DNA of 48,159 nucleotides, filler included, from Dirinaria sp. TL-2023a (Eukaryota): NCBI GenBank assembly GCA_051941275.1. It is 2 parts of 2 records of this genome, joined end to end, with 100 filler letters (N's around TTAATTAATTAA, not from the genome) between each part and the next. Parts side by side here need not be neighbours in the genome. Positions count along the whole stretch, not along the records: positions 1 to 24,035 come from JAVEBF010000193.1; 1 more part is not named here. The stretch is one strand, 5' to 3'. Positions within the stretch are counted from its first letter, which is position 1; the number at the start of each line of letters is the position of its first letter. Below are positions 18,219 through 48,156 of this stretch, piece by piece. The position numbers were made by a program, and so were the translations under genes. A model generated the notes under the pieces. That model was not told the DNA's origin, did no database searches, and saw nothing but the letters and a program-made list of their open reading frames with translations.

Positions 18219-20233
18219 TCCTTCGAAAGAGCCATAGTAAAGGTGAGCAGGACTACTTCATCTCTTGAAAAGGAAGCTAAAAAGATAGCACTAGATCGCA
18301 AATTTCCAAACCGGACACTATTCGAAGACATCTCGTGGATGTGAGGCGCGAGGGTTCCGGGAAACCATACACATCCAGCGACCGGCAGAAATTTGAAACA
18401 CTTTCAGAAACATGAGAAACACCGAGACCAAAGCAATCAAGGCCGTGGCCCAAGCGGGAAGATGTCAGATGTAATGCCGGATAATCACGAGAGTATGCGA
18501 AGGTTCCTGAGAAATGTGCGATGCTTCCAGTCTCTACTTTGTGAGTGAACATGAGAAAGGGTTTGCACCGAGTTTTACCTTAAAGATAGACTCACTCGTC
18601 AATCCGTTCAAATCAATATTAGCGAAGTGAAATTTTCAAGATGATGATAAGCTCGAAACTCTTGAATTTGAAGCCTTGGTCATGGCCATACCAATAATCC
18701 AGTCTCGGAATACAGCAGGCGTACAAGATCGGTAAAGAGGCTTTCATAGTCGCTAAGGCGACGCGAATAGGCCGCCAGGATGTCGCACGTTATGAAAGGT
18801 ATCTGTTACATTGGCAGATGTGACGAAAGCTCTCTAAGAGTATAGTCAGGAATAGATGGAAGCTGATATGGTCGTAGAGGACCTAACGCTGGCAAAGGAG
18901 ATCGCCGATCAACATGTTCATAAAGGGTACCCATCTCAGAACTTAAATCTGAGTATGGAGAAAGATGTGGAACATTTCGTGCGTAAATGATTTTGATATA
19001 TAAGCTAATCTGACTTTCCCCCATTTTTAAGATTATCTGAGATACCATCGGACTATTCGAGCCTAAATGTGCAACCAACATACCAACGATGGAGTCGATG
19101 TCCGTTCATGAAATGAGCTCGTAAAGCTCGCAGTGGACCTAGGATTAGCGTTCTAATATTCGACCCCGTTGGAAGGAGCCTCGTGAGCGAGTGCTTTCGA
19201 TAACTTACTGGATTTGAATTGCTGTGAGTTATATGCTGCTTTGGACTTAGCTGGTACCAGAGGCCATCCTATATAAGCAGATTCTGGCGCAGAAGTATCG
19301 CTCTCAGCGCCAGCGGCTCCCTCTGCCTGTGCGGTCGATACTTGGAGTAACCCGATGGGTTATGAGGTGATAGCTTGGATGAGTCTTGTTCATTAGGAAG
19401 CGTTCGCATCTAATTTCCCTGGCCAAATGTTTACACAACGAATGCTGTTCACGAAGCTACCCGGAATGCGAGGTCAAGTGCTTAACGCGGGTTTTGATTC
19501 GCAAACCTCTCTTTCTTCTTCGCGAAGTGTATTATTACCTAATCTAGTTGGCACTTCAATGCGAACACTTTTTTAAAAAACACTAGGTTACCTAAGCCAT
19601 TCCCGTGACGTAAAGGAGATGCTCATGGGATATTATATGCTCCTACAGGCACTTCGTCGAGAATACTGTCAAGTATACTGCGATCTTCATCGCCAAAGCT
19701 GCTGAGCGTATTGGGAAGGTCCACGCATGCTGCTAATTGCACGTAGCAATTCTATGCTTCTATGCTCCTAAGTCGGATAATTGGGTAGAAACGACTACGT
19801 ACGTATCAAATGCACACCTGAGGTGACATCGATGACCCCTTTGAGCTGATAAGGATCTTCAGAAAGTGTTACCTTGTCCGGTTAGGTGCTCGAGTGTTTG
19901 AAGTGTCCTGCGGGGACAGTGAGTCTGCTATAATGACAGTTCAGCTGATCGAACCACTCTCGCAGAGGCGTGCACTCTGCACGCCGGTGCTTGCGTCAGC
20001 CAACACAAGAACCAACGACATTCGCAAGCAATCCCGAGCAACTCTGAGCATGTGCAGTTTCTCAAGGGAACACTGCTCGAAGAGCAACACTTGCGCTCAC
20101 CCATTTAAATGGATCTCTTACGTTTCACACACCTAACTTGCTTTCGTCTTTCTAACCTAAGAAGTGAATTATGAGTAGCTAAAATTCCTCGGTCAGTCTT
20201 CTGTCATTCGGTGAGATCTTTTTCGAGCTCGCT

Positions 20234-21200
20234 ATGAAAAGGACGCTCAATCCGGGCTTTACGTAACAACTCGAAAAAGACCTCGGTTCGACAAGTAGCA
20301 GTTCAAGTCACAAAGTCTCGACCTTATCATTAAAGAAAAACTTGTGGAAAGGCATGCCGAAATGGAGTTGAAGTATTGCAGCAGACACTGGCGGGACTGA
20401 CAAAGGAGCGAAGGAATCGAAAGAGCGAGAACGAGGAACTTAGGAGCAACTCAAGGGTCTAAGCAAGCTAAACAACAAGCTTCAGGAGAGTCGACCAGCG
20501 ACAGTCCGAAGGAACTGTGAAGTTCAATACAACGGCGGTCACGATGACGACAAAGAAGCCCCGACAGACCCTCGAGAACGCATAAATCAAGTCTATAGAG
20601 ATCATCAAAACGATAAATTAGAGCTCTAAAACCCTCGATACGCTCGACCCAAGGATGTGAAGGTTTATTGCGGAGCATCGCACAAATGGAAAACTAGTTG
20701 CATGGCTTCAGAGTCCAAAGTTTGCTGAATACTGAGCCGACTTCACAACAGAGACTTCTAGATCAAATACGCCCGAGATCTCTGCGGCGAACAAATCAGC
20801 GTTCCCCGCCATTGAACGTCGCGCAGATGTGAATGAACTTAAGGGTTACAGAACACTGGAAGAAATCCTTCAGGATTTGAAAACAAGCTTCGATCTTCGG
20901 GACAGAAAGGCGATAGCTTTGAGCGAGATAAGACATTCATGATTTCGAATGAGAGTTTAAATATTTACCGAGACTTACGATGAGTTCACTACTCGACTGA
21001 GCAGTACATTTTCATTTCTTGAATTCAATAACTACATAAAGAAACGAATTCTCAAGAACACACTGACGAAATCGCTCTATCAGAAGATTAACAAACTACT
21101 CGATACAATAACATAGGACGAGATTCTGGCGCTCAATGAGACGAATTTTCATCTAAACTCGACAAAGAGTTCAGAAATGACTCCGACATGAAAAAAAGTC
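20234..21200 (+). mobile_element. Degenerate retrotransposon gag-like relic
   Basis: Stop-interrupted translation GYRTLEEILQDLKTSFDLRDRKAIALSEIRHS*FRMRV*IFTETYDEFTTRLSS resembles Ty3/gypsy capsid (L..F..R..A..f.m..E.f..F..R). It abuts LTR-like sequences. Boundaries are approximate. Confidence 0.5.
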
Positions 21201-21249: not shown

Positions 21250-21411
21250 TGTCACAGATCCAGAGCGATAGTGTTAGAGCTCCCTTGAAGGCACATCCAG
21301 AGCACTAGCGAACGCGATCTCTCCATAAGCCTCGTATTTATGTATCTTAATTCTGCATAGCTGGAATTCTTGTCGATATCGTACCTATATATGCAGCTCT
21401 GATCTCTGACA
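21250..21411. mobile_element. Short TG...CA element with ~16-bp terminal inverted repeats (solo LTR or MITE), 162 bp
   Basis: Left end TGTCACAGATCCAGAGC versus reverse complement of right end TGTCAGAGATCAGAGC (one mismatch, one indel). Flanks GGACT/GAAAT match only partly. Confidence 0.55.
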
Positions 21412-21734
21412 GAAATGTAAGAATGCTATTAAGATCTAATGTCTATCTCGAATTAAGTCTCAACCTTGACCTACTGAACCGTTCTGAGAAGCAAGGAGAT
21501 CTAAACTGTCTAAGTAGATGCTCGAAATCGAAATCAAACAAATCTAAATCGTCTAACCGACTCTCAGCTTCCTCCGCCCATTACAGCATATCTCGCAGTT
21601 TCAACCGAAGAGGTCTATTCAGTGAACATCAAAGCCCGCCCCTCATCTCGCAATCTCCACCCACTACCGCCAACGATCAAGTCGTCCATGTCTGGTTAGT
21701 GTACTCATAGGGAATAAGTAGGACAGGGGATTTG

Positions 21735-21959
21735 TGTCACGGTTTCACATTAGTTACCCGGGTCAAGTGTTTACACTATGAATGTTGTTCACCTCGCTAC
21801 CCGGCATAGGAGGTTAGGTACTTAAACCGGGTCGAGGTTCACAAATCTCTTTCTTTTTTTCTTTCTTCTTTGCGAATTGTCTTGTTATCTAATCTAGTTA
21901 GTATATCAATGTCAACACTTTTTCAAGAACACTACCTTATCTAAATCACTCTCGTGACA
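21735..21959 (+). mobile_element. LTR, 225 bp (TGTCACG...CGTGACA)
   Basis: Perfect 7-bp terminal inverted repeat. Preceded by a purine-rich tract (AGGGAATAAGTAGGACAGGGGA) and followed 36 nt later by the gag ATG. Confidence 0.7.
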
Positions 21960-22766
21960 TTACAATTCGCCGACCCTTATTACAATTACATCATCATGTC
22001 TGACGATACTCCTCATCACAATCCTCCTCGAGGCTTCGTTCGCTTCAACGATAGAGAGGACTTATCTAAGCTTCATCGCTTCAATAACTCGAACGAACTC
22101 AAAACTGCAATGATTCAAGACTTCAACGCGTACATTAAGTTGATCGACGTCTTGATGTTTAATGTCAACGAAATGATCACTCATTTCTCTGCAATGATTG
22201 ACGACTTCAATCATCGCATGAAAATCAAGAATGAGCTTTTGCAAAACATTCAAGCTCAACATGTTGTCGATCAGAACTTCAAACACAAACGTAACGTCAA
22301 TCATCTCGATCTCGATAAATTCGATGAAATCAAGCGGAGTGAGCTACGCTCGTTCATCTTCGTCTGTCGAACTAAGCTTGAACGCAATCAAGATCACTTC
22401 GTTGAAATCATCTTCGAAGCAATTCTTCGAAATAGAACTCTCTATTTGAACTCACGATTATTCGATTCTGCGGCTGAACAAGCTCTCTCTGTCGTCGAAA
22501 AAGACTCATTTACTCACGAAATATCGATGATCAATAGCCTCGAAAATTTTTATTTTTGATTGAAAAACACTTTCGGTGATCTCGATCGAACTCGAACTGC
22601 TCAAACGAAGATCAAGAATTTGCGACAAGATAATCGCTCATACACTAAATATCTTATCGATTTTCAAAAACACATAATCGACACGAGCTATGATCAGATG
22701 ATTATCAAATTAGTTTTCATCGATGATCTCTCGATAAAATTTCAGAATGCTTTAGTCTTTAATTTC

Positions 22767-23176
22767 TGTAACAGTGGTACCTGATACATTGGTATATATT
22801 GACCAATGCAGGCTAGCGCCGCTTGGCCGCCGGAGGTGCCCAGAGGCAATCCCTTGGGGTCTGAAGCATGGCTAGCGTCGCCTAGGACTTAGCGTCGGAA
22901 GGTTGAATCCCGAGGCTGACTAGGAGCCAGTGAGCGGTTGACGCTTATGGAGCATTGTGCCTACGAGCGCTCGTGACCCGCCAGCGCGGGGCTCGTCATG
23001 GTGGGGCAATGTTAACGCTCGCGGTTAAGTATAGGGGACCACCCACCCTTTCAGGAGGTTCTCAGTGATTAGTTCTAGCAGGAACTACAGTACCAGGTAG
23101 CCATATAATCTATTACACTGCCACGTCTTTCACATAAGTACTACGCCGGCGGGTAACCGGCGCATACGACCTTACA
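22767..23176. mobile_element. Solo LTR (410 bp) nested in gag
   Basis: TGTAA...TTACA termini and a perfect 5-bp target-site duplication ATTTC (22762-22766 / 23177-23181). It is GC-rich compared with the host element, and its removal restores the gag frame (VFNF|AESTF). Confidence 0.9.
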
Positions 23177-23516
23177 ATTTCGCTGAGTCTACATTCTCTT
23201 TTCAACAATTTCAGCAAAAATGTAATCGACTTGAAAATCGTTTGAAAACAATCGTCGAGAATTCTTGTTATCAGAACTCGTTTCAGTCAAACAAACGCTC
23301 ATTCTCAACGCTCAATACTTTTACTGCGAACATTAAATCTAATGTCGCTGTCTCTGTTTACACTAAAGTCATCTTCATCACTACTGAGAGAGATAATGTT
23401 ATGAATCTCTCAGTCGATAAAACTCGACGATCTCTAACGAACGCAGAGAAGATCGTCAATCGAAAATATCGTCAAGAGAACAATCTCTGTCTATATTGCG
23501 ACGACTCTAATCGTCA

Positions 23517-23733
23517 TGTAGACGACTTGATAGGATTTATATGGGTTTGGTCTATATTTGCGGAGGTCTGCCATATTAGGCATAGCGTCGGCACTAGGCC
23601 CGCTATACCCGTCAACACCGACCTAGGTACTTATACCTGGTCGGTCCTCCTAGATAGTTTCTCCATCCATCCATCTTATTATCATCATATTTTGCCCATA
23701 GGCCATTTTCCAGGCGATTGCCTTCTTTTTTCA
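23517..23733. mobile_element. Second nested insertion (217 bp, TG...CA) splitting the gag zinc knuckle
   Basis: Abrupt return of CC/GG dinucleotides, TG/CA ends, and flanks CGTCA/TATCA (possible TSD with two transitions). Insert plus TSD is 222 nt, so the frame is kept. Confidence 0.55.
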
Positions 23734-23849
23734 TATCACGACTGTCTCAAAATTCGTAAAATCAGTGTTCGAGCGATCTTCATTGAAATTACTTCAACTG
23801 AATTCTTCGAAAACGTTTCTGACACTTCTTCCGCTTTCGATAATGATGC

Positions 23850-23888
23850 GAAAAAAGTATAGTCTCTGAGCATAGTCGCGCTCAGAGA
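23850..23888 (+). promoter_or_regulatory. gag-pol -1 ribosomal frameshift signal (slippery site plus hairpin)
   Basis: G AAA AAA immediately before the gag stop (GTA TAG), then a perfect 9-bp stem TCTCTGAGC-8 nt loop-GCTCAGAGA (23863-23888). The -1 frame is stop-free to the gap. Confidence 0.65.
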
Positions 23889-24035
23889 TCAATCAAAAAT
23901 AAACTCAAAATTTCTAACACAGTCATTAAAAATTCGAACGAACAAACTCTAAAAGATTTATTTATGCATGTATTGATAAACGATAACATGTCTAAAATCG
24001 TTCACGATAAACTGTTCATTCTTTTTAAGATTTTA

Positions 24036-24135
24036 NNNNNNNNNNNNNNNNNNNNNNNNNNNNNNNNNNNNNNNNNNNNTTAATTAATTAANNNNNNNNN
24101 NNNNNNNNNNNNNNNNNNNNNNNNNNNNNNNNNNN
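24036..24135. other. Artificial scaffold/contig linker (assembly gap)
   Basis: 44 N + TTAATTAATTAA (stops in all six frames) + 44 N = exactly 100 nt. Confidence 0.95.
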
Positions 24136-24598: not shown

Positions 24599-26931
24599 TT
24601 ACTGCGACTTCTTCCCTTCCACAGGCGCCATCCTCTCAATCAACCCCGCCGCCACCTTGGCACTCTCCTGCCATCCCTGCTGATGCTTCCAGAACCTATC
24701 CTGAGGGCCCATCGTATTCAACGTACTCATTCGAGCATCCTCTTCGAGGCTCTTGCGCGTAATCTTTTCGTCCGTGGGCAAGGGTGGCAACTCTGTGACT
24801 TCGTCGCCAAAGTTTTCTTGCAGGTACCGCTTCCGCACCATAAAGCGTTCTGCGCGCTCTTTCTGCACGCCTGGAGAATCGATCTTCGAGATTGCAAGGC
24901 GTACGCCCATGCGCACAAGAAGGTATGTGTGTTCCGAGAAGAAAACTGTCAGAAGAAGCGCCCAGCCTTTGATAGTGCCTGGTGTCCCGTCTGGTCCTAG
25001 GCCGTCGTTGCTGAAGAGGTAAACGAGTGCTGCGCTAGTAATACTACCGAGCCAAGATAGGAAGCTCAGACTATCAAGCCACGGTCCAATACTGTCGGCC
25101 CGGAGCGGTGTGGGCCGTTGCATCTCGACGCAGATCTTGACGGCATCAGAGCGTAGCTCGATCCAGTTGTTGACGATGAATGACACAGGGACAAGGGGCC
25201 AGACAGCCGAGAAGAGAGCGAGGTAGCCGAATTGGATTACCATCTCTCTCAGGTCGGTGGTCACGTCGTAGACATCGAGTTCGGCTTCATTGCGTACACG
25301 AGTGAGGAATTCGGCCTCCTCAGGACTATCTTGAATGGTAGATCCTGGGGAAGCGCCACCTTTCTTCGCAGCACGCTCCGTTTTGACCTCCTGGTATTTT
25401 CGGAAACCTCGACGTTTGACGTAGGGTACGATGGTTTCCATAGCGAAGTTAATGATTTGGGCAGTGACGGTGAAATATATCACCTGTTGCCGAAGTCTCG
25501 ACGGATTGATTGCGAAGCCTGCCTGCGGCGTTGCGAGCTGTGTCTCATTCTCCGCAAAGGGTCTAGCTGTCAGGCTAAAGACATCGAGGTACGGCACTAT
25601 CAGGCTACCGAAAGGAACATAGACAAATGCAGTTAGAAAAACAGGGAGATAGGACGTGATGAAATTGAGGATGAAGACTTTTTGAGTCATCGCGGATTCG
25701 TAGCCCTCTTTGGTTTCGTAATTCTCGAAATCGTTTAACCTCGTGGCGATACCAGTAAGGAGAGCCGTCAGTGTCGGGACCAGAGCTGTGAGAAGACCTG
25801 TGGGAAGGAAAACCTATTCCAATCAATCCTACTATCCTAGCTCTAATAATACGGAGAGAGACTCACTAATACACTCTGCAGAGGGCCCTTGTACACTTCT
25901 GAGAGGAAGATTTCAATGCCGAAGCAGGTAGCTATCAGTGTTCCCAAAGCTAGACTCGCTAATATGGCGAACGGAATCTGCAAAGCCTGTCGGGCTAATC
26001 GCTTTGTTTCTGGAAAGATTCGAACGATCTCCCCAGTAACAGGATCCTTAACTTCCTTTTCGTGCTGAAAATCTTTTCTCTTCTCCGAAATGGCAGAGAC
26101 GCCCTTCACGTCCCAACGGAACCCAAGATCTACCTCTTGCCGTTTCCAATACTCTACGAAGGTAATACACCAGAGGCCGTTAAGTATGGCGTATATGGGA
26201 GAGAAATGGCCGAGCAGCACCCATGCAGCAAAGCCAAAACCCCCAAGGGGTACAAGGAAAGCGAAGTAGGACTGTGTAAAGGCAAAGTAGAAAGCAACCT
26301 GTGTCCCTGTCAATTCCGAGCATTCTTACCAAAACCTTTGTAAAGCTACCTTTTCGCCAAAGCGGTTCCTAATGTCGTCCAAATCTTCAGCCTTCAAGAA
26401 CGTCATTGTGCTCCAGTGCTTGATCCATTCCTTGTTAAACTTGTGATCGTGCAAGGGAAATATGGATTCCACATTCTTGAATGGTTCTTCCTTGGGTATG
26501 ATTCCAGCGCCGCCTTCTTCTCTCGGATTTGTGATCATCTGGTAGACTATTCGGTATCGTTCAGCTTCCGTCAATTGCTGACTGCTAAGAGAATTCTGAA
26601 CTTCTTTGTCTGGCTGAGCGGCTCGAACTCCTTGAAGCCAGTCTCTGACTCTGCGATTGCTTTAGAGGGAGTTATCAGCATAAGCAGAATATACTTACCG
26701 AGATCTGTAGACATGGTGACTTAAAACCTTGTCCGAACCTATTTTCGCAAACACCAATAGAGCGCAATTATCGCCATTGCGGACTTCAATTTGGAGACCG
26801 ACTCGGGCCAAAGCTTGTACAAGTCTTGCGAAGTCTTCCCTGGCTTCCGCTTTGCTGGTGTCTGTGAATCTGTAGGTTATTACATAGTCGACGTCAAAAT
26901 TAGCATGGAGTGGATTGATATGTTGAGCCAT
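24599..26931 (-). CDS. Anoctamin/TMEM16 (Ist2-like) Ca2+-activated scramblase/channel, ~726 aa; exons 26931-26699, 26650-26350, 26298-25867, 25813-24599
   Basis: Motifs FPLHD, IRNRFGEKVAFYFAF, EYWKRQE, DLREMVIQFGY, NNWIELRSDAVKI, RADSIGPW. Three GT-AG introns give a continuous frame of 2181 nt. Confidence 0.93.
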
Positions 26932-27338
26932 GGAGGCAGTGTGCTCCTTGGTAGTAATCGACGAGGCTTTACTATCATCAAGTGTACTCCAATGATCTCT
27001 TGCCTTGCAAAGGCAGGACAAAAGACTGCAAGTGAAAAGGCGAGAACGCTCGGAATATAATGACCAAGGATACCAAGAATCGCGACTTCATCAAAGTGCT
27101 CTAGAAACTTGGCACGCGTCCGTCAGTCTACGAAACGTCATCATGCATTTGGCGAGGAAGACCCTGCCGAAGTGCTCATATCATCAGCCCTAAAAAGGCA
27201 TCTTGGTAAGGTACCTTCAAGGCTGGTTTAGGGTTTGGCCTTAGGATGGCTACAATACCTACCTTAGATACCTGAGGCAAGATTTGGATTTAGAGCTTCT
27301 CGTCTCTCTATCCCTTAGTCTGAAATATCAGTCCTACG

Positions 27339-33709: not shown

Positions 33710-35728
33710 TTAGACGCCCACACTGTTGACGGTCACGCCGCTATTGCTCCGCAGAGTCTTCCTCACCACCGCGACGATGACGCGTGCCGGTTTCCTAGAG
33801 GTGTCGAAAGAAAGCCCATATTTTACCTGAGACAGAGTGTGTATCTGCGCCGGCTTTTGTAGCTCGTTCCTTAGGTAGTCGTTCAATTTTGCTAGGGGCC
33901 CATACAGAGCCTTTTCACCGCAGGCTGTACTTTCACAATGGTCGTACAGAGCGCTGAGGTGCGTGAACAATTTCGAGCATTCTGGGCACTTCAGAGTGTA
34001 TGGATAGTCATTCGTGCAGCTTTGGTTCTCGTAGTGCCGGGTGATGTCGGCTTCGCTCAAAAAGATCTGCTTACATACTGGACAGCGCCAAGTATTGCGA
34101 CTAGGAACTATGTAAGCGGAGCGAACCACACTGGGTGGTGCTCCAGCTCTGAGCCAGGGCTCATGTTCTTTCAAAATGTACGTGTCCGCCGTAGGGCACT
34201 GGGTAGCCAGGGAGTTGATATGTTGACTCCCAGCACCTGAGATGCATTTTTCGCCCTCAATATGTTGTAACATGGCTGACATCTTTTCGAAATCTTGACA
34301 TGCACAGGCGAAGCAGGAGACAGGATATTCGTTGAGAGTTCGAGTCTGCTGGTAGCTTGTTAGTGATGGTGAGATATCTGTAGTCTAATGATAGCTTACT
34401 TGTCCAACTCCTTTAGAGTCGTTGCTTAGAGGTCGGTGATCCTTCATGTGTGCTTGAGATGTTGCCATGTGTTCCTTCAGCTGGTCGCTGTTGGCGAAGG
34501 TAATCTGACAGAGTACACACTTGATTACTGGGTGCTTGGCCTGAGTGTGCTGGTGAACCATAAGCTAACCAGTACACAATGCTCTTGTGAAAATCTGCTT
34601 ACTGCTTGGAGATCAGTCAAAGACGAGAAATCTTGCTGACAAGCGTGGCAGTAGGTATGGATGTGCGCGATATGTTGAGTAAAATGTGCAATCAACTCAT
34701 CCCTGATCCCGAAAACCAGTCTGCAGCGCTCGCACACATGATGCTTGTCGGGTGTATCTTTTTGGTGAGACCATTTTGCGGTAGCACTCTCGAAGAGGAT
34801 CTCACAGATGTCATCATAGGTAGCTTCGTGGATGGCACTTCTCCAATGAGCTTTCAAAGCTGCCTCATCATTGTAGATATCACTACATTGTGAGCATTTG
34901 AATTGAGGATGCCGAGCCCGATTGTGCTATTTTAAGTCAGTACTTGCATGTTATTCGAGATACATCTCGTACTTGTTTAAGCTCCCATGCGGTGCCGAAA
35001 TCTTCTCTGCATGTATTGCAGTATGTGTCTTTATGCTCTTCGGACATTGCGTAGTGATCATGCAGCCTCTCTGCAGTGGGGTAGTCGTGGAAACAGAGAT
35101 AGCATATATGATGTTTCTGTGGTGTTGCTCTTACATGGAGGGTTTTCTCGGCAACAGTTTCGAAAAGAATATCGCAGAAAGAGTCGTACAGTTCTTTATG
35201 TGACGAGTCCGTCTTTAGATGTCGGATTAAACTTTCTCGATTTTGAAACTTCATGTTGCAGCTTCTGCAGCCATCTGATACAGCTTCCCCCTGCCCATTT
35301 GAGTATGATTGAGGAGTTGCTACAGTATTCCTGTTTGGACACAAACGAGCAAGATGGCCTGATTTTCCGCAGAGATGGCAACGTAAAGAAGGGCCAGTCG
35401 AAGACTGCACAGATGGTCTCTGACTTGATTCGCCTCTAGCGCTTGCTGTAAAACCACCATCTCGCTGTTTATTTACATCGCTGCGATGAAAACTACTGTA
35501 GGTGAGATGTGAATGAAGGGCTTCTTGCGACACAAAGTCTCTATCACATAATTTGCAGTAAAAATGTCCGGGTGAATTGATTAGATGGTTTCGTAAAGCC
35601 GATGCTGATTGAAATTGACGATCACAGGGAATACACACATTGGGCCCTTGTTGTACTTGCTCATGAGCTGAGTTCTACCAAGCTTGGGTCACAAGCTTGA
35701 AAGACTTACCAGAACGACGAGCAGACAT
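33710..35728 (-). CDS. Multi-C2H2 zinc-finger protein with a CCHC zinc knuckle, ~608 aa; exons 35728-35710, 35667-34973, 34926-34603, 34549-34400, 34348-33710
   Basis: Many CxxC...H...H units (CIPCDRQF..LRNHL..H, CKLCDRDF..LHSHL..H, CPVCKQIF..ITRH, CPECSKLF..LYDHCE) plus CHLCGKSGHLARLC. Four GT-AG introns give an open frame of 1827 nt. The first exon is least certain. Confidence 0.85.
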
Positions 35729-40597: not shown

Positions 40598-43500
40598 ATG
40601 TCGGTACAAGGCTCTGATGCCTTGTTACGGACGTTCCAAGAGCTCAAACAAGCCAAGAATCAGGACCTGCGAAATCGAGCTTCATTAGAGCTCAACAGCC
40701 TGATTGCGACAGCCTCGAGAGGTAAGGTCATAAGCCTCTACCCTGGGCATCGCTAATTTTGTGTATAGAGCTACCCGCAGAGAGGTTTCAGGAATATTAT
40801 GCGACAGTCAATCATAGAATCGCTCAGCTTGTGGTAGCGAGCAACGATGTTAATGAAAAAATCGGAGGTATTCTCGCGGTCGAAGCTCTGATACGGTTCG
40901 ATGGCGATGATGCCGCACAGAAGACTGCGCGTCTTCTGGGTTTCCTCCGCGCTGCGCTACGAAGTAATGATAACACCGTGCTCATGTACGCCGCTCGCGC
41001 GCTCGGGCATCTTGCAGTGCCCGGCGGAGCCCTCACGGCTGAGCTTGTTGAAAGTGAGGTCAAGTCAGCGTTGGAATGGCTACAATCAGATCGGCAAGAG
41101 AGCCGAAGGTTCGCAGCTGTGCTCTGCGTGAACGAGCTTGCAAAGAATTCTCCGACTCTCCTGTACGCCTTTGTGCCCCAAATCCTTGACTGCATCTGGG
41201 TTGCCCTTCGCGATCCGAAGGTCTTAATTCGTGAAACTGCAGCGGAGGCGGTCGGCTCTTGCTTCGATATTATCTCAGCTCGCGACGCCGCCTTGAGACA
41301 GCAATGGTTCTCGAGAATGTACGATGAGACCATTCAAGGCTTCAAGAACGCCGCCAACATTGAGTACGTTCATGGCTCGTTACTAACGATGAAGGAACTT
41401 CTTCTCAAGGGCGGTATGTTCATGCATGAGCACTACAAGACCGCTTGTGAAGTGTGCTTGCGTTTGAGGGACCATCGAGAACCTCGGATTCGATCACAGA
41501 TTGTGATGTTGATCCCAATCCTTGCCGGCTATGCTCCTTCAGAATTTGCCGCGACGAATCTTCACAATTTCATGATTTATCTGCAAGGTCAATTGAAGAA
41601 AGACAAAGAACGCAATGCGGCCTTTATTGCCATTGGCAAGGTAGCCAACGCGGTTGGTAGTGCTATTGCCTCGTACCTTGATGGAATTATCGTCTTCGTC
41701 CGCGAAGGCCTTAGTGTCAAAGCGTGAGTAACTCCCATCAGTATAATTTCATTGCATGAATAACGTTATGCAGGCGAAACCGGATGGGCACAGATGAAGG
41801 ACCTGTCTTTCGCTGCATCAGCATGCTGTCCATTGCCGTTGGTCAGACTTTGAGCAAATACATGGAAGCACTCATGGATCCTATATTCGCTTGCGGTCTA
41901 AGCGAATCTCTAACACAAGCGCTTGTGGACATGGCTCACTATATTCCACCCATCAAGCCAATGGTCCAGGAGAAGCTCCTCAACCTCCTCAGTTTGGTCC
42001 TTTCTGGTCGTCCCTTCAAACCTTTGGGGTGCCCTAGCAATAAGCTCCCAGCATTGCCAGCATTTGCTAAAGACTTCAATCTTCAAGTATCTGAACACAA
42101 AGACTCGGAAATAGCTTTAGCGTTGAATACGCTCGGAACCTTTGATTTTGCCGGTAAGATTGAGCCTCCAGCACATTGAATTCCGTGTTCGATTTTTATG
42201 GGTACTAAACTGGCTTAATCATGTAGGACATGTATTAAACGAGTTCGTCCGAGATGTCGCAATCCGCTACGTGGACAATAACAATCCGGAGATACGAAAA
42301 GCAGCGGCACTGACCTGCTGTCAGCTATACATTCGAGACCCTATTATACATCAGACAAGCTTTCATGCCATCCGAGTAGTAGTCGAGGTCATTGAACGCC
42401 TACTCACGGTTGGAGTTGCCGATCCAGATCCAGATATCCGAAAGACGGTCCTGTTGTCACTAGATTCGAAGTTCGACCGCCACCTTGCCAAACCAGAGAA
42501 CGTACGGTCTATATTCCTTGCGATCAATGATGGAGATTTTGAGGTCCGACAGGCGGCGATGATGATCATTGGGAGATTGACCGGTGTCAACCCAGCATAT
42601 GTCTTCCCGCCTTTACGAAAACTGCTTGTCAATTTGATGACCGGCATCAAATCTTCCAAAGATCCAAGGCATGAGGAAGAGGGTGCAAGGTTGATCAGCC
42701 TCTTCGTCGCCAATGCCTCGCAGATAGTCAAGCCTTACGTGGATCCTCTAGTCAGGACACTGCTACCAAAAGCTACCGATCCCAATGTTGGGGTAGCTGC
42801 AACGACCTTGCAAGCGATCGGGGAGCTGGCTACTGTTGGAGGGACGGACCTGCTTCCTTACATACCGAAGCTGATGCCCACAATAATAGAAGCTTTGCAA
42901 GATCTCAGCTCGCAATCCAAGCGTGATGCAGCGCTACACACTCTTGGTCAGCTCGCGAGCAGCTCTGGGTACGTTATACAGCCTTACTTGGATTATCCGC
43001 ACCTGCTGGATATCTTGGTCAACATCACGAAAACAGAGCAGCAAGGCTCTCTGAGAAAAGAGACCATCAAGCTACTCGGGATTCTTGGAGCCCTCGATCC
43101 CTACAAGCATCAACAGATAATGGAGGCCTTCCCGGATCCTGGCCTACAGAATGAAGCTCAACCCGTTTCAGACGTTGCGATACTCATGTCTGGTCTTACA
43201 CCGGATCATGAGGACTATTACCCGACCGTGGTTATGAACACCTTAATGCAGACTGTCCTCAAGGATACGTCTCTATCGCAGTATCATTCTGCAGTTATAG
43301 AAGCCATTGTCACTATTTTCAAAACTCTAGGCCTAAAATGTGTTCCATTCTTGGGCCAAATCATCCCGAGCTTCATCACAGTCATACGTAGTGCGCCACC
43401 GACACGGCTCGAGTTGTATTTCAATCAGCTAGCTATACTGGTTTCTATCGTTCGTCAGCATATCCGACCCTACACCAAACAGCTGATTGACCTCGTCAAA

Positions 43501-46500
43501 GAGTATTGGTCAACGTCTCCTCAGATACAAGCGACCGTTCTGTCACTAGTCGAAGCTCTATCAAGATCTCTTGAGGGCGAGTTTGCAGGCTTCATTGCCC
43601 AGATATTGCCTCTTATGCTCTCTGTACTGGAAAAAGATAGTAACGTTCGTCGCGCCCCTTCGGAGAAAGTTCTGCATGCAATTCTTGTATTTGAACAAGG
43701 CGCGGAATACTATATGCATTTGATCATTCCAACGCTGGTACGCATGTTCCAGAAGTCGGCCAATCCTGTCAGCATTCGCCGAGCGGCGATCGATACCATT
43801 GGTAAAATCACTCGGGAAGTAAATATCACGGACTATACATCAATGCTGGTGCACAGCTTGGGTGATATTCTAAACGGCAAGGAGCAGCCTCTCAAGACAG
43901 CGGCTCTTGACTGTATCCAGGCTCTGATCTTCCAACTCGGCCACGAATACCTCCTGTTCAATAGTACAATTAAGAAAATCCTCGTCGCTAACCACATACC
44001 ACACCATAACTATGACCTCTTAGTCTCCAAGCTGCAGAAAGGGGATGACCTCCCTCAAGACTTAAGCCCAAACACCCACTACGGCGGGCTAGGAGATGAT
44101 TCGTCGTATGCGAACATAGACCAAAAGAAGTTGCCAGTCAATCAAGAACACCTGAAAAACGCGTGGGAAGCTTCACAGAAATCAACTCGCGAGGATTGGC
44201 AAGAATGGATGCGACGCTTCAGCGTCGAGCTTCTGAAGGAATCCCCGTCGCATGCCCTTCGCGCCTGTGCCGGCTTGGCTGGTGTCTATCAGCCGCTCGC
44301 TAAGGATCTGTTCAACGCGGCTTTCGTATCATGCTGGACAGAGCTCTATGAGCAGTATCAAGAAGACCTAATCCATTCTCTCGAAAATGCCTTGACATCG
44401 GCCCTTATTCCTCCAGAGATCCTACAGATTCTTCTCAACCTCGCAGAATTCATGGAGCACGATGACAAGGCTCTCCCGGTCGATATTCGAACGCTTGGTG
44501 TTTATGCAGCCAGATGCCACGCTTATGCGAAAGCGTTGCATTACAAAGAACTGGAGTTTGAAGAGAAGAAAACGCCGGGCACTGTAGAGGCGCTGATCTA
44601 CATAAACAACCAGCTGCAGCAAGGTGACGCCGCTGTAGGCATTCTGCGCAATGCACAGAAATATCGTGACATAGAACTGAAAGAGACCTGGTTCGAAAAA
44701 TTACAACGCTGGGATGAGGCTTTGCAAGCATACCAGAAGAGGGAGCGCGAGGACCCAAGATCGTTTGAAATCACCAAGGGTAAGATGCGGTGCTTCCACG
44801 CTCTTGGAGAGTGGGAGCTTCTTTCAAACCTCGCGGAAGAGAAGTGGAGCCTAGCCACCCTCGAGCACCGACGTGCCATTGCTCCTTTAGCTACCGCTGC
44901 TGCATGGGGCTTGGGCCAATGGGAGCTGATGGATAACTACCTTGATGCGATGAAGTCTCTATCGCCGGATCGGTCGTTCTTTGGAGCGATCCTAGCGATC
45001 CACCGTAATCACTTCGATCGAGCTGCTGAGCACATTGAGAAAGCTAGGGAGGGGCTTGACACCGAACTCGGCGCACTTCTTGGGGAATCATACAATCGTG
45101 CATACGGCGTCATTGTCCGTGTGCAAATGCTCGCAGAACTTGAGGAGGTTATTACGTATAAGAAGAGCGACGGGAATCCGATCAAGCAAGCGACCATGCA
45201 AGAGACATGGACTCGAAGGCTTTTAGGTTGCCAACGCAATGTAGAAGTGTGGCAGCGGATGCTCAAGGTTCGGAGTCTTGTCGTCCCTCCGAAGGATAAT
45301 ATCAAGATGTGGATCAAGTTCGCCAATCTGTGCAGAAAATCCGGTCGCATCGGCCTCGCAGAAAAGACACTTAGTGAGCTTCAGAGGGTCAGTTCTGGCT
45401 TGGACAGCAGCGATCCACTAGAAGGAGCTTCCGGTGTTCCCGAAGTGCTCTACGCGCAATTGAAATACCAGTGGTCCACCGGCCAGCAAGAAACTTCTTT
45501 AACAAGGTTAGGAGAATTCACCACGAAGCTTTCGGAGCAACTTGCCATGTATAGCGCCCACCAGCGTGAGCCACCTGTGACACTGCATGGCATGCCCTCC
45601 ATGGATACGCCTTTAGTTCAGTACGGCAACATCTCCAGTGGCCTGCCTCCATCTCCGCAGAAAAAGACAGATCCTCAAAATATTAAGATGCTTCTTGCGA
45701 AATGTTACCTCAAGCAGGGCGAATGGATAACCACCCTCAAGCACGGAGACTGGGAGTCGGAGCATGTTCACGATATTATTCAATCTTATGCGCATGCAAC
45801 GACCTATAACCCCGGTTGGTACAAGGCATGGCATGCATGGGCGTTGGCGAACTTCGAGGTAGTGACAGCAATCACCTCGCAGGCGAATAGAGAAATAGCA
45901 ATCCTACCACAGGCAGTCATTACGGATCATGTAGTCCCGGCCATACGCGGATTCTTCCGGTCTATCTCACTTTCCTCCAGCAGCTCCCTACAAGATACGC
46001 TACGGTTACTTACTTTATGGTTTGCCCATGGTGGAGATCACGAAGTCAGTGCAGCTGTGACAGAAGGTTTTCAAAGCGTCAGCGTTGATACATGGCTCGA
46101 AGTCATTCCACAATTGATCGCTCGTATCAACCAGCCCAACTCTCGTGTTCGACAGTCCATCCATCGACTTCTTGCTGAAGTTGGAAAGGCACACCCACAG
46201 GCTTTGGTTTATCCTCTCACGGTCGCTATCAAATCAACTGTGCCGAAACGCTCTGCATCGGCCATGCAGATTCTGGAAAGCATGAAGACACATAGTGCCG
46301 AGCTCGTTGAACAGGCGGAGCTTGTTAGCAAAGAGCTGATTCGAGTAGCTGTACTATGGCATGAGCAATGGCATGAAGGCTTGGAAGAAGCCTCGAGACT
46401 GTAAGTCAAAACGCCCTGTTTACGATTTGAGTTTCTAGATCAGAAGGCTTACTGAGTCAGGTATTTTGGTGACCACGATATCGAGGGCATGTTTGCGACG

Positions 46501-48156
46501 TTGGAGCCATTGCATGACTTGCTCAACAGGGTAAGCCTCAAAGAACCCAAGCACTCACTAGAAGCTCAAACTTCGCAGGGCTCCCATACGCTTCGCGAAA
46601 TCTCCTTTATGCAAGCGTTCGGCCGCGATCTTCACGAAGCGCATGAGTGGTGTGAGACGTATCGCACTACGCAGGAAATCGGCGATTTGAACCAGGCTTG
46701 GGATCTTTACTATTCTGTGTTCCGAAGAATTGCTCGACAATTACAGCACCTGATGCAGCTGGAGCTGACCTACGTATCACCCAAGCTTAAAGAAGCCAAG
46801 AACCTTGCACTGGCTGTACCGGGGACCTATCAGAGTGGCAAGCCAGTCATCCGGATCATGAGCTTCGACCATATCTTCACCGTTATCCCATCCAAGCAAC
46901 GTCCTCGCAAGATGACCTTGCGTGGCAGTGACGGCGTACCCTACACCTACGCTCTCAAAGGCCACGAAGACATCCGGCAAGACGAACGCGTAATGCAGCT
47001 CTTCGGTCTCGTAAACACCCTCTTAAACAACGACAGCGAATCCTTCAAGCGGCACCTGAACATCCAGCAATTCCCCGCCATCCCGCTCTCGACGCAATCC
47101 GGCCTGCTGGGATGGGTTCCGAACAGCGACACGCTGCACAACCTGATCAAAGATTACCGCGAAAAGCGGCGCATCCTGCTCAACATCGAACACCGGATCA
47201 TGCTGCAGATGGCACCGGACTACGACAACCTGACGCTGATGCAAAAAGTCGAAGTCTTCTCCTACGCCATGGACAACACAACGGGGAAAGACCTGTACCG
47301 GGTGCTCTGGCTGAAATCCAAGTCGTCCGAATCCTGGCTCGAGCGACGCACAAACTACACGCGGTCCCTGGCCGTGATGTCGATGGTGGGCTACATCCTG
47401 GGGCTCGGCGACCGGCACCCATCGAACCTAATGCTCGACCGCATCACGGGCAAAATCGTCCACATCGATTTCGGGGACTGCTTCGAAGTGGCCATGGCGC
47501 GGGAGAAGTACCCGGAACGGGTCCCGTTCCGCCTGACGCGCATGCTGACCTTCGCGATGGAAGTGTCCAACATCGACGGCAGCTACAAGCTCAGCTGCGA
47601 AGCCGTCATGCGCGTGATCCGCGAGAACAAAGAATCGCTCATGGCCGTCCTCGAAGCCTTCATCCACGACCCGTTGCTCAACTGGCGCCTCGGACGGAAA
47701 GATTCCCCGCCCGAACCCTCCTTCCCCAGCGAACGCCGCCAGAGCATCATCGGCGACCTCCCAGACCCCCAAACTACTCAACCCCAACTCGCAACCCAGC
47801 AGCAACAACAACAACAACAACAAAGAACCATCAGCGGCTCCTCGGCTTCTATCCGCAGCAGCGGCCGCAGGACATCATCCGCCGTAGGAGTCGAAAACAA
47901 CATGAACAACAACAGCAGCGGGGTCCTGCTGGACCCGCAGCAGCAGCAGGCTGGTGCCGGTGCCGCCGACGCGAAAGAAATCCAGAACGAGCAGGCGGTC
48001 AAGGTGCTCGCGCGCGTCAAGGAGAAGCTGCACGGGCGCGATTTCGGCGGGAAGGAGGACCTCGACGTCGAGCGGCAGGTCGCCAAACTCATTGCCCAAG
48101 CCACGAATGTCGAGAACTTGTGCCAGCATTATATCGGCTGGTGCAGTTTCTGGTGA
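40598..48156 (+). CDS. TOR: TOR serine/threonine kinase (PIKK family), ~2426 aa; exons 40598-40721, 40769-41723, 41774-42153, 42227-46400, 46461-46530, 46579-48156
   Basis: HEAT repeats, FAT domain (ALHYKELEF), FRB ([18 protein letters not shown]), kinase ([33 protein letters not shown]) and FATC ([14 protein letters not shown]). Five GT-AG introns give 7281 nt in frame. Confidence 0.98.
47797..47823 (+). repeat. CAG/CAA trinucleotide repeat encoding poly-Q within TOR
   Basis: CAG CAG CAA CAA CAA CAA CAA CAA CAA (Q9) between the kinase and FATC regions. Confidence 0.85.

Follow-up and report, generated by a model that had tools for sequence, protein, structure and literature searches.

Near-complete loss of CC and GG dinucleotides from a retrotransposon gag gene of Dirinaria sp. 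TL-2023a points to candidate CpC-specific hypermutation

How can a transposon gene lose nearly all of its CC and GG dinucleotides and still remain an open reading frame (ORF)? The question is raised by a gag gene of the gypsy type located in a 48,159-nt stretch of DNA (below, the window) made of two joined contigs of the Dirinaria sp. TL-2023a assembly GCA_051941275.1. The element carrying this gene starts with a long terminal repeat (LTR) at position 21700 and runs to the contig end at 24035. In an initial annotation, made from the sequence only, it had been described as a target of non-canonical hypermutation resembling repeat-induced point mutation (RIP), with CpC changed to TpC on both strands.

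Three tracts of the element were measured (22081-22766, 23182-23516 and 23734-24035; 1323 bp in total). Together they contain two CC and three GG dinucleotides, i.e. five, vs 86.1 expected from the base composition of the tracts themselves (Poisson P = 1.7e-30) and 141 expected at the CC+GG density of the remaining window. The survivors are one CC and three GG in the first tract, none in the second, and one CC and no GG in the third. The count made by eye in the initial annotation, five in ~1.3 kb, is reproduced exactly, while the extent of the depletion has to be redrawn: the saturated tract begins at ~22051 and is preceded by a partly depleted zone (21851-22050, observed-to-expected ratio, o/e, 0.50), upstream of which composition is normal (21700-21850, o/e 1.38).

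The dinucleotides that are over-represented in the tracts are TC and GA (combined o/e 1.75), while CT+AG stays at 0.99. A cytosine is followed by T in 104 cases, by A in 95, by G in 83 and by another C only twice (2 of 284); a guanine is preceded by C in 83 cases, by T in 63, by A in 56 and by another G in four (4 of 206). Both strands are near saturation, CC→TC and GG→GA alike. CpG is in excess (o/e 1.97 in the tracts vs 0.89 in the remaining window), TpA is under-represented, and the fall in GC content is modest (0.36 in the tracts vs 0.48). The index (CC+GG)/(TC+GA) is 0.019 in the tracts and 0.764 in the remaining window. For RIP of the CpA type, PMC3897900 quotes thresholds of TpA/ApT of at least 0.89 and (CpA+TpG)/(ApC+GpT) of at most 1.03; with 0.49 and 1.19, respectively, the tracts lie on the non-RIP side of each, and the prediction that standard RIP indices would miss the pattern holds.

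Within the window the depletion is confined to transposon sequence. Sliding windows of 300 bp placed outside the transposon nest never had fewer than nine CC+GG (0 of 856; median 31), vs 0 to 5 within the tracts. The comparison of repeats with genes, suggested earlier as a check, gave normal CC+GG o/e values for single-copy genes (0.84 for TOR and 0.92 for anoctamin).

The direction of mutation was read at the codon level. A HMMER search with the window gag (its in-frame TGA read through) against 1.84 billion representatives produced 112 matches. Most gag matches have ~400 amino acids, 4-12% proline (Pro) and 3-8% glycine (Gly), and carry the motifs HPDPDKFxG, FGDPD, MDLS and CLYCGGxGH. A profile of intact relatives was built from 68 of 109 proteins (P0006-P0114), namely those of 250-599 amino acids with at least 4% Pro and at least 3% Gly; the other 41 were dropped. 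The codon comparison was limited to columns where 50% or more of the 68 relatives agree.

None of the 12 consensus Pro columns is kept in the window, where the codons read CTC (four), TCT (four), GTT (two), AAC and TAC. One of the eight consensus Gly columns is kept; five of the eight read GAN and none reads AGN. When pooled, Pro and Gly survive at 1 of 20 columns, vs 53 of 83 for all remaining conserved columns (Fisher P = 1.3e-6). Among the latter, Arg is retained at 8 of 12 columns (all CGN), Gln at 4 of 6 (all CAA) and Leu at 12 of 19 (eight CTN and four TTR). Where the next base is A, G or T, the cytosine was left unchanged, as the retained Gln CAA and Arg CGN codons illustrate. The derivation of TCT from CCT and of CTC from CCC, with no CTT, CTA or CTG, along with the change of GGN to GAN, identifies the 5′ C of CpC as the mutated base, which is the direction, on two strands, that had been proposed.

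Other parts of that proposal stand as well. Residues 28-201 of ORF 21954..22559 contain no Pro, Gly or tryptophan (Trp), and the suggested back-mutations match the HPDPDKFxG, MDLS and CLYCGGxGH motifs of the intact relatives. The single internal stop, TGA at 22557, aligns with a Trp in the nearest relatives (P0006, P0007 and P0011), in agreement with a TGG→TGA change. All along ~424 gag codons we observed no frameshift and no stop, TAA and TAG included, besides this former Trp codon; extra stops are few because GG→GA can make a stop only from TGG. An intact frame of this length suggests a fast and specific process rather than slow decay. As the 68 relatives conserve Pro and Gly at the altered columns, which was the check proposed against native composition, this comparison of sequences makes hypermutation, rather than native composition, a well-supported conclusion, with near-saturating change of the 5′ C of CpC to T on the two strands.

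The same state recurs in other gag ORFs. Pro and Gly together make up at most 1% in 22 of the 124 related ORFs (P0004-P0114 and P0235-P0247), and sequences free of both residues come from independent public assemblies. One of these ORFs, P0004, is 55% identical to the window gag and is named as belonging to the same Dirinaria MAG (metagenome-assembled genome), on another contig; both P0004 and P0005 terminate precisely at the position of the window's TGA, a Trp column. In the HPDPD motif, the pair of Pro columns reads L/L, L/F, S/S and F-or-S/S among the copies, and the Gly column reads E, D, E and D. Since the same codons yielded different transition products, independent hits are indicated. 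In three groups of ORFs free of Pro and Gly, Pro was kept at 0 of 12, 0 of 99 and 0 of 17 columns (0/128) and Gly at 0 of 7, 0 of 69 and 0 of 14 (0/90); Arg was kept at 8 of 12, 82 of 126 and only 12 of 30. Replacements of Ala by Val or Ile, Thr by Ile, Ser by Phe, Asp by Asn and Glu by Lys are frequent in these ORFs, as CC→TC and GG→GA predict.

Two further observations were made on the set of related ORFs. Proteins P0008, P0019 and P0235-P0247 (ENA) form a many-copy gag family of 82-93% mutual identity with Trp at conserved places. Protein P0011 (1.0% Pro, 1.7% Gly) and proteins P0065, P0079 and P0101 (0% Pro, 3.8-8.6% Gly) resemble copies partly mutated on one strand, such as single rounds of RIP give.

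Apart from a softer left edge, the borders of the depletion in the element coincide with insertions. The 5′ LTR (21700..21965, + strand, TG...CA) has normal CC/GG content in its first ~150 bp and is CC/GG-poor in its last ~115 bp. The first part of gag (21996..22766, +) begins with ATG at 21996, continues past the TGA at 22557 in a frame open to 22766, and covers profile positions 22-248. It is followed by an unmutated solo LTR of 410 bp (22767..23176, +, TG...CA), flanked by the target-site duplication (TSD) ATTTC at 22762-22766 and 23177-23181. The second part of gag (23182..23527, +), with no CC/GG in 23182-23516, covers profile positions 253-350 up to the CCHC zinc knuckle. As profile positions 248 and 253 flank the first insertion, gag is cleanly split by the solo LTR; the two parts match the profile of the 68 intact relatives with E-values of 1e-43 and 1.2e-14, respectively.

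A second unmutated, LTR-like insertion of 211 bp (23528..23738, +, TG...CA) lies within the zinc knuckle, with the TSD CGACT at 23523-23527 and 23739-23743; it has weak similarity to the other LTRs. The CC/GG-poor end of gag (23739..23862, +) comprises the last Cys of the knuckle, an acidic tail and a TAG at 23860, at a distance past the knuckle similar to that in relatives. CC/GG-free sequence then continues to the contig end (23863..24035, +); it is presumed to be the start of pol, and no search identified it. In the insertions CC+GG o/e is 1.04 (410-bp solo LTR, measured at 22777-23176, GC 0.555) and 1.50 (211-bp insertion). The depleted tracts stop within a few bases of both TSD-flanked insertions, at whose borders CC/GG counts rise from ~0 to ~8-12 per 50 bp. 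The insertions of 410 and 211 bp probably arrived after the gag was mutated and would represent later retrotransposon activity that escaped the process.

Assignment of the element to the gypsy type stands through gag alone (Retrotrans_gag, with Ty3_capsid in relative P0010), pol being beyond the contig end and the 5′ LTR being the only one present. The window gag itself matches Pfam Retrotrans_gag with an E-value of 5.7e-4, under the cut-off. Among four intact relatives run against Pfam, P0010 scored above the cut-off for Retrotrans_gag and Ty3_capsid and P0012 for Retrotrans_gag only, with Retrotrans_gag matches of P0006 and P0013 under it. The ESM Atlas confirmed the label 'retrotransposon gag' for the victim protein and gave no further identity. 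The zinc knuckle reads CLYCDDSN, vs CLYCGGxG in relatives, with the spacing CX2CX4(H→R)X4C.

What known process does this pattern resemble? RIP of Neurospora and other Pezizomycotina, which depends on RID and DIM-2, acts before meiosis and affects duplicated sequence while sparing single-copy DNA, has in common with it transitions of C:G to T:A only, action on two strands, a context set by the 3′ base, confinement to transposons with sharp edges, sparing of later insertions and occurrence in an ascomycete class with reported RIP. The target differs: RIP acts on CpA, whereas here CpC is changed, CpA and CpG are untouched, TpA is not gained and almost no new stops appear. Specificity here looks near-absolute, while the context of RIP is a preference, with CpC ranking last among the contexts used in Neurospora. 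Detection of RIP usually relies on CpA→TpA products and AT-rich isochores, and so, often, does its definition.

The combination of a +1-base context with action on two strands has the format of RIP. Table 1 of RIPCAL includes CpC→TpC / GpG→GpA among the four formal classes; the paper also defines the index (CpC+GpG)/(TpC+GpA), and the biases that it reports are for CpA, CpG and CpT (PMC2621366). RIP-like mutation in basidiomycetes (Microbotryum, Pucciniomycotina; Rhizoctonia, with a CpG bias) targets CpG or TpCpG according to PMC4014442 and PMC2621366. Like the pattern here, it is a fungal C-to-T mutation associated with repeats in a context other than CpA, and it depletes CpG; in our tracts, by contrast, CpG is over-represented about 2-fold, and TCG is a product of CCG, not a substrate.

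Editing by APOBEC3G resembles the pattern in its CC dinucleotide, its retroelement victims and the conversion of Trp TGG to a stop. With APOBEC3G, deamination affects the 3′ C of a CC pair and is confined to the minus strand, which reads as GG→AG on the plus strand; the tracts instead show hits at the 5′ C, with GG→GA and CC→TC on the same strand. The earlier statement that neither Neurospora RIP nor APOBEC3G fits is borne out by the lack of TpA gain, by the two strands affected and by the excess of TC+GA with CT+AG at expectation.

The pattern matches no described fungal genome-defence signature that we could find. A search of full-text literature for CpC-dominant mutation of repeats in any fungus returned none, subscription journals and supplements being largely outside its coverage. 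Three hits for the term were discarded: in PMC4014442, CpC is an entry of a table of single-nucleotide polymorphism spacing, with no CpC bias claimed, and in PMC11185503 and PMC11105155 the letters stand for the Chromosomal Passenger Complex and for author initials.

The explanation we favor is that a Ty3/gypsy-type copy in Dirinaria sp. TL-2023a lost its function through enzymatic C-to-T hypermutation at CpC. The change of CpC to TpC (GpG to GpA on the opposite strand) went near completion on two strands, with cytosines in CpA, CpG and CpT spared; Pro (CCN) and Gly (GGN) codons were thereby lost and Trp (TGG) turned into TGA, with long ORFs left open. We infer that the agent would be a RIP-like, homology-directed defence that targets duplicated DNA during the sexual cycle, and that its enzyme would be a cytosine methyltransferase or deaminase that reads the +1 base like Neurospora RIP and prefers C over A. 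The solo LTRs would be untouched either as younger arrivals or as sequences too short for recognition. We give about an even chance to a RIP-like, repeat-directed defence with CpC in place of CpA specificity. The wider version falls somewhat short of that: lichen-forming fungi of this Dirinaria lineage, along with the hosts of three or more further Pro/Gly-free gag families from public metagenomes, may possess a repeat-directed defence whose enzyme, a methyltransferase or deaminase of new specificity, is near-absolute for the 5′ C of CpC. Such a defence would kill transposon proteins by erasure of Pro, Gly and Trp, would neither raise AT content strongly nor scatter stops, and would escape RIP indices and GC screens.

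In favor of a RIP-like defence, RIP as well as homologues of RID and DIM-2 are reported for other lichen-forming Lecanoromycetes, namely Cladonia rangiformis (PMC12542154) and Xanthoria (bioRxiv 10.1101/2025.11.25.690456).

Partner copies were looked for in the window and beyond. Searches of 21700-24035 against the window with blastn and tblastx found as a second copy only an LTR-like pair, in which the LTR 21700-21965 is 73% identical to an LTR-like sequence at 19403-19609 (aligned part 21744-21958). The pair differs at 52 sites of mixed kinds (15 C→T, 6 G→A) and is too diverged for a RIPCAL-style test. Alignments of the mutated gag families to metagenome, genome and viral contig collections gave no confirmed locus of another DNA copy. 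With respect to composition, the downstream member of the pair is largely stripped of CC/GG over its final ~110 bp and the upstream member retains them.

Several facts weigh against a repeat-directed CpC defence. The searches yielded no second DNA copy for alignment, which leaves dependence on repeats putative; in the LTR pair CpC accounts for just 6 of the 15 C→T differences, and none of the 6 G→A differences follows a G. The polarity of mutation is taken from protein relatives just 27-37% identical to the window gag, not from a parental DNA copy. All affected sequences that were identified are retroelement gag genes, as a process specific to retroelements could produce. Mutation is absent from both solo LTRs (410 and 211 bp) and from the initial ~150 bp of the LTR that belongs to the element itself. 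The 15-member P0008 family is without Pro and Gly and yet retains Trp, which is not expected from simple GG→GA change unless the gene caller read TGA codons as Trp. Lichen fungi that have been studied show ordinary, AT-rich RIP, with GC of 10-20% in Cladonia (PMC12542154), and a k-mer survey that presupposed no mutation pattern and covered 1,239 fungal genomes (scaffolds >50 kb) concluded that RIP-like defences share a preference for CpA (PMC12543289). Given these reports, one has to assume either a shift in specificity or an additional system.

Could the element have been mutated without any recognition of homology? Heterochromatin or transposons may be marked as such, either by a CpC-preferring methyltransferase with subsequent deamination of 5-methylcytosine or by a deaminase recruited by small RNA or chromatin. 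Such marking explains the two-strand symmetry and the restriction to transposons as well as RIP does, and it needs no partner copy, none having been found in the window. The solo LTRs inside the mutated tract are, however, untouched despite sharing its chromatin, and CpC saturation with no frameshift or extra stop in ~424 codons disfavors slow spontaneous deamination; we also know of no CpC-specific methylation system in eukaryotes, which counts against this explanation. For a different clade of deaminases, one that has undergone expansion in fungi, a role in conflicts with viruses or transposons has been proposed (PMC5889660), a point in favor of homology-independent marking, which overall we regard as rather unlikely. 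Editing of retrotransposon cDNA by a cytosine deaminase acting on single-stranded DNA at reverse transcription, as APOBEC3 does, followed by integration of the edited copy, would account for the fact that every identified target is a retroelement gag. Depletion is absent in the 5′ part of the LTR, partial up to ~22050 and complete thereafter, which loosely recalls gradients of retroviral cDNA editing, and P0011, having lost most Pro and kept some Gly (1.0% and 1.7%), hints at one-strand events. Such editing would affect essentially one strand, whereas saturation here involves both (two CC and three GG left), and near-100% conversion in a single reverse-transcription event is implausible. The context of APOBEC enzymes is the −1 base, that of the tracts the +1 base, a further count against it. 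Moreover, AID/APOBEC-like deaminases were apparently lost in fungi (PMC5889660), and we consider cDNA editing improbable.

That an unusual or horizontally acquired family has such a composition by nature, or that assembly or sequencing produced an artefact, is very improbable. In favor of this are the single DNA copy seen and its position at a contig end of a MAG. A gag without Pro, Gly and Trp would not be functional, though, and the 68 relatives, having at least 4% Pro and at least 3% Gly, conserve these residues at the positions concerned; the boundaries of depletion are transposon insertions bearing TSDs, and the Pro/Gly-free state appears in independent assemblies. Nor, to our knowledge, does any chemistry convert only C before C. 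Three more candidates were rejected: an ultraviolet signature would deplete TC, which is enriched here; bisulfite-like and sequencing artefacts are not limited to C before C; and, had the RNA template been edited, the marks would be found on a single strand.

If a repeat-directed CpC defence is confirmed, the context specificity of RIP-type systems can flip, and genomes scored as RIP-free by TpA/ApT may still mutate their repeats. The index (CC+GG)/(TC+GA), already defined in RIPCAL, could detect such cases. An enzyme with so sharp a dinucleotide specificity would inform on how RID-type proteins read their targets and might become a tool. ORFs free of Pro and Gly that are annotated as hypothetical proteins in MAGs of lichens should be flagged as dead transposon genes.

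Upstream of the element, the transposon nest contains a separate CC/GG-poor tract (20901..21200, strand not assigned) of unclassified, weakly gag-like sequence with five CC/GG (o/e 0.25) and a TC+GA o/e of 1.71, the signature seen in the element; positions 20841-21089, which overlap this tract, match the gag profile weakly (independent E-value 0.0033). Another tract in unclassified sequence, 21301-21550, is more weakly CC/GG-poor and TC/GA-rich. Normal stretches lie between the depleted tracts, and the nest is a mosaic of converted and unconverted pieces. Pfam families were detected in none of seven of the eight ORFs scanned at 19.3-21.7 kb, and the eighth (20334-20462) had only sub-cut-off matches to TSC22 and DUF2205.

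The interval 24036..24135 (strand not applicable) is an artificial contig joint rather than biological sequence: as reading of the sequence tells, it consists of N44-TTAATTAATTAA-N44, a linker with stops in six frames, placed between two MAG contigs set end to end. No inference is possible across this joint, and, since it lies directly 3′ of the element, the element is truncated by the contig end at 24035.

On the second contig, the ORF 24602-25690 (anoctamin) is 100% identical to hypothetical protein Q9191_002087 of the Dirinaria sp. TL-2023a MAG; its next-best protein matches, at 75-80% identity, are nearly all from lichen-forming Lecanoromycetes. Judged by these protein matches, the host is the lichen fungus Dirinaria sp. 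TL-2023a. Among 25 additional ORFs scanned elsewhere in the window, none belonged to a further transposon. The anoctamin-family channel gene is split by introns and occupies 24602-27087 (− strand), and a cluster of C2H2 zinc-finger ORFs lies at 33713-35674 (−). The region 40726-48156 (+), with ORFs of 322, 1420 and 555 amino acids, holds what we take by eye to be a TOR kinase gene. Dinucleotide content is normal in the TOR, anoctamin and C2H2 gene regions.

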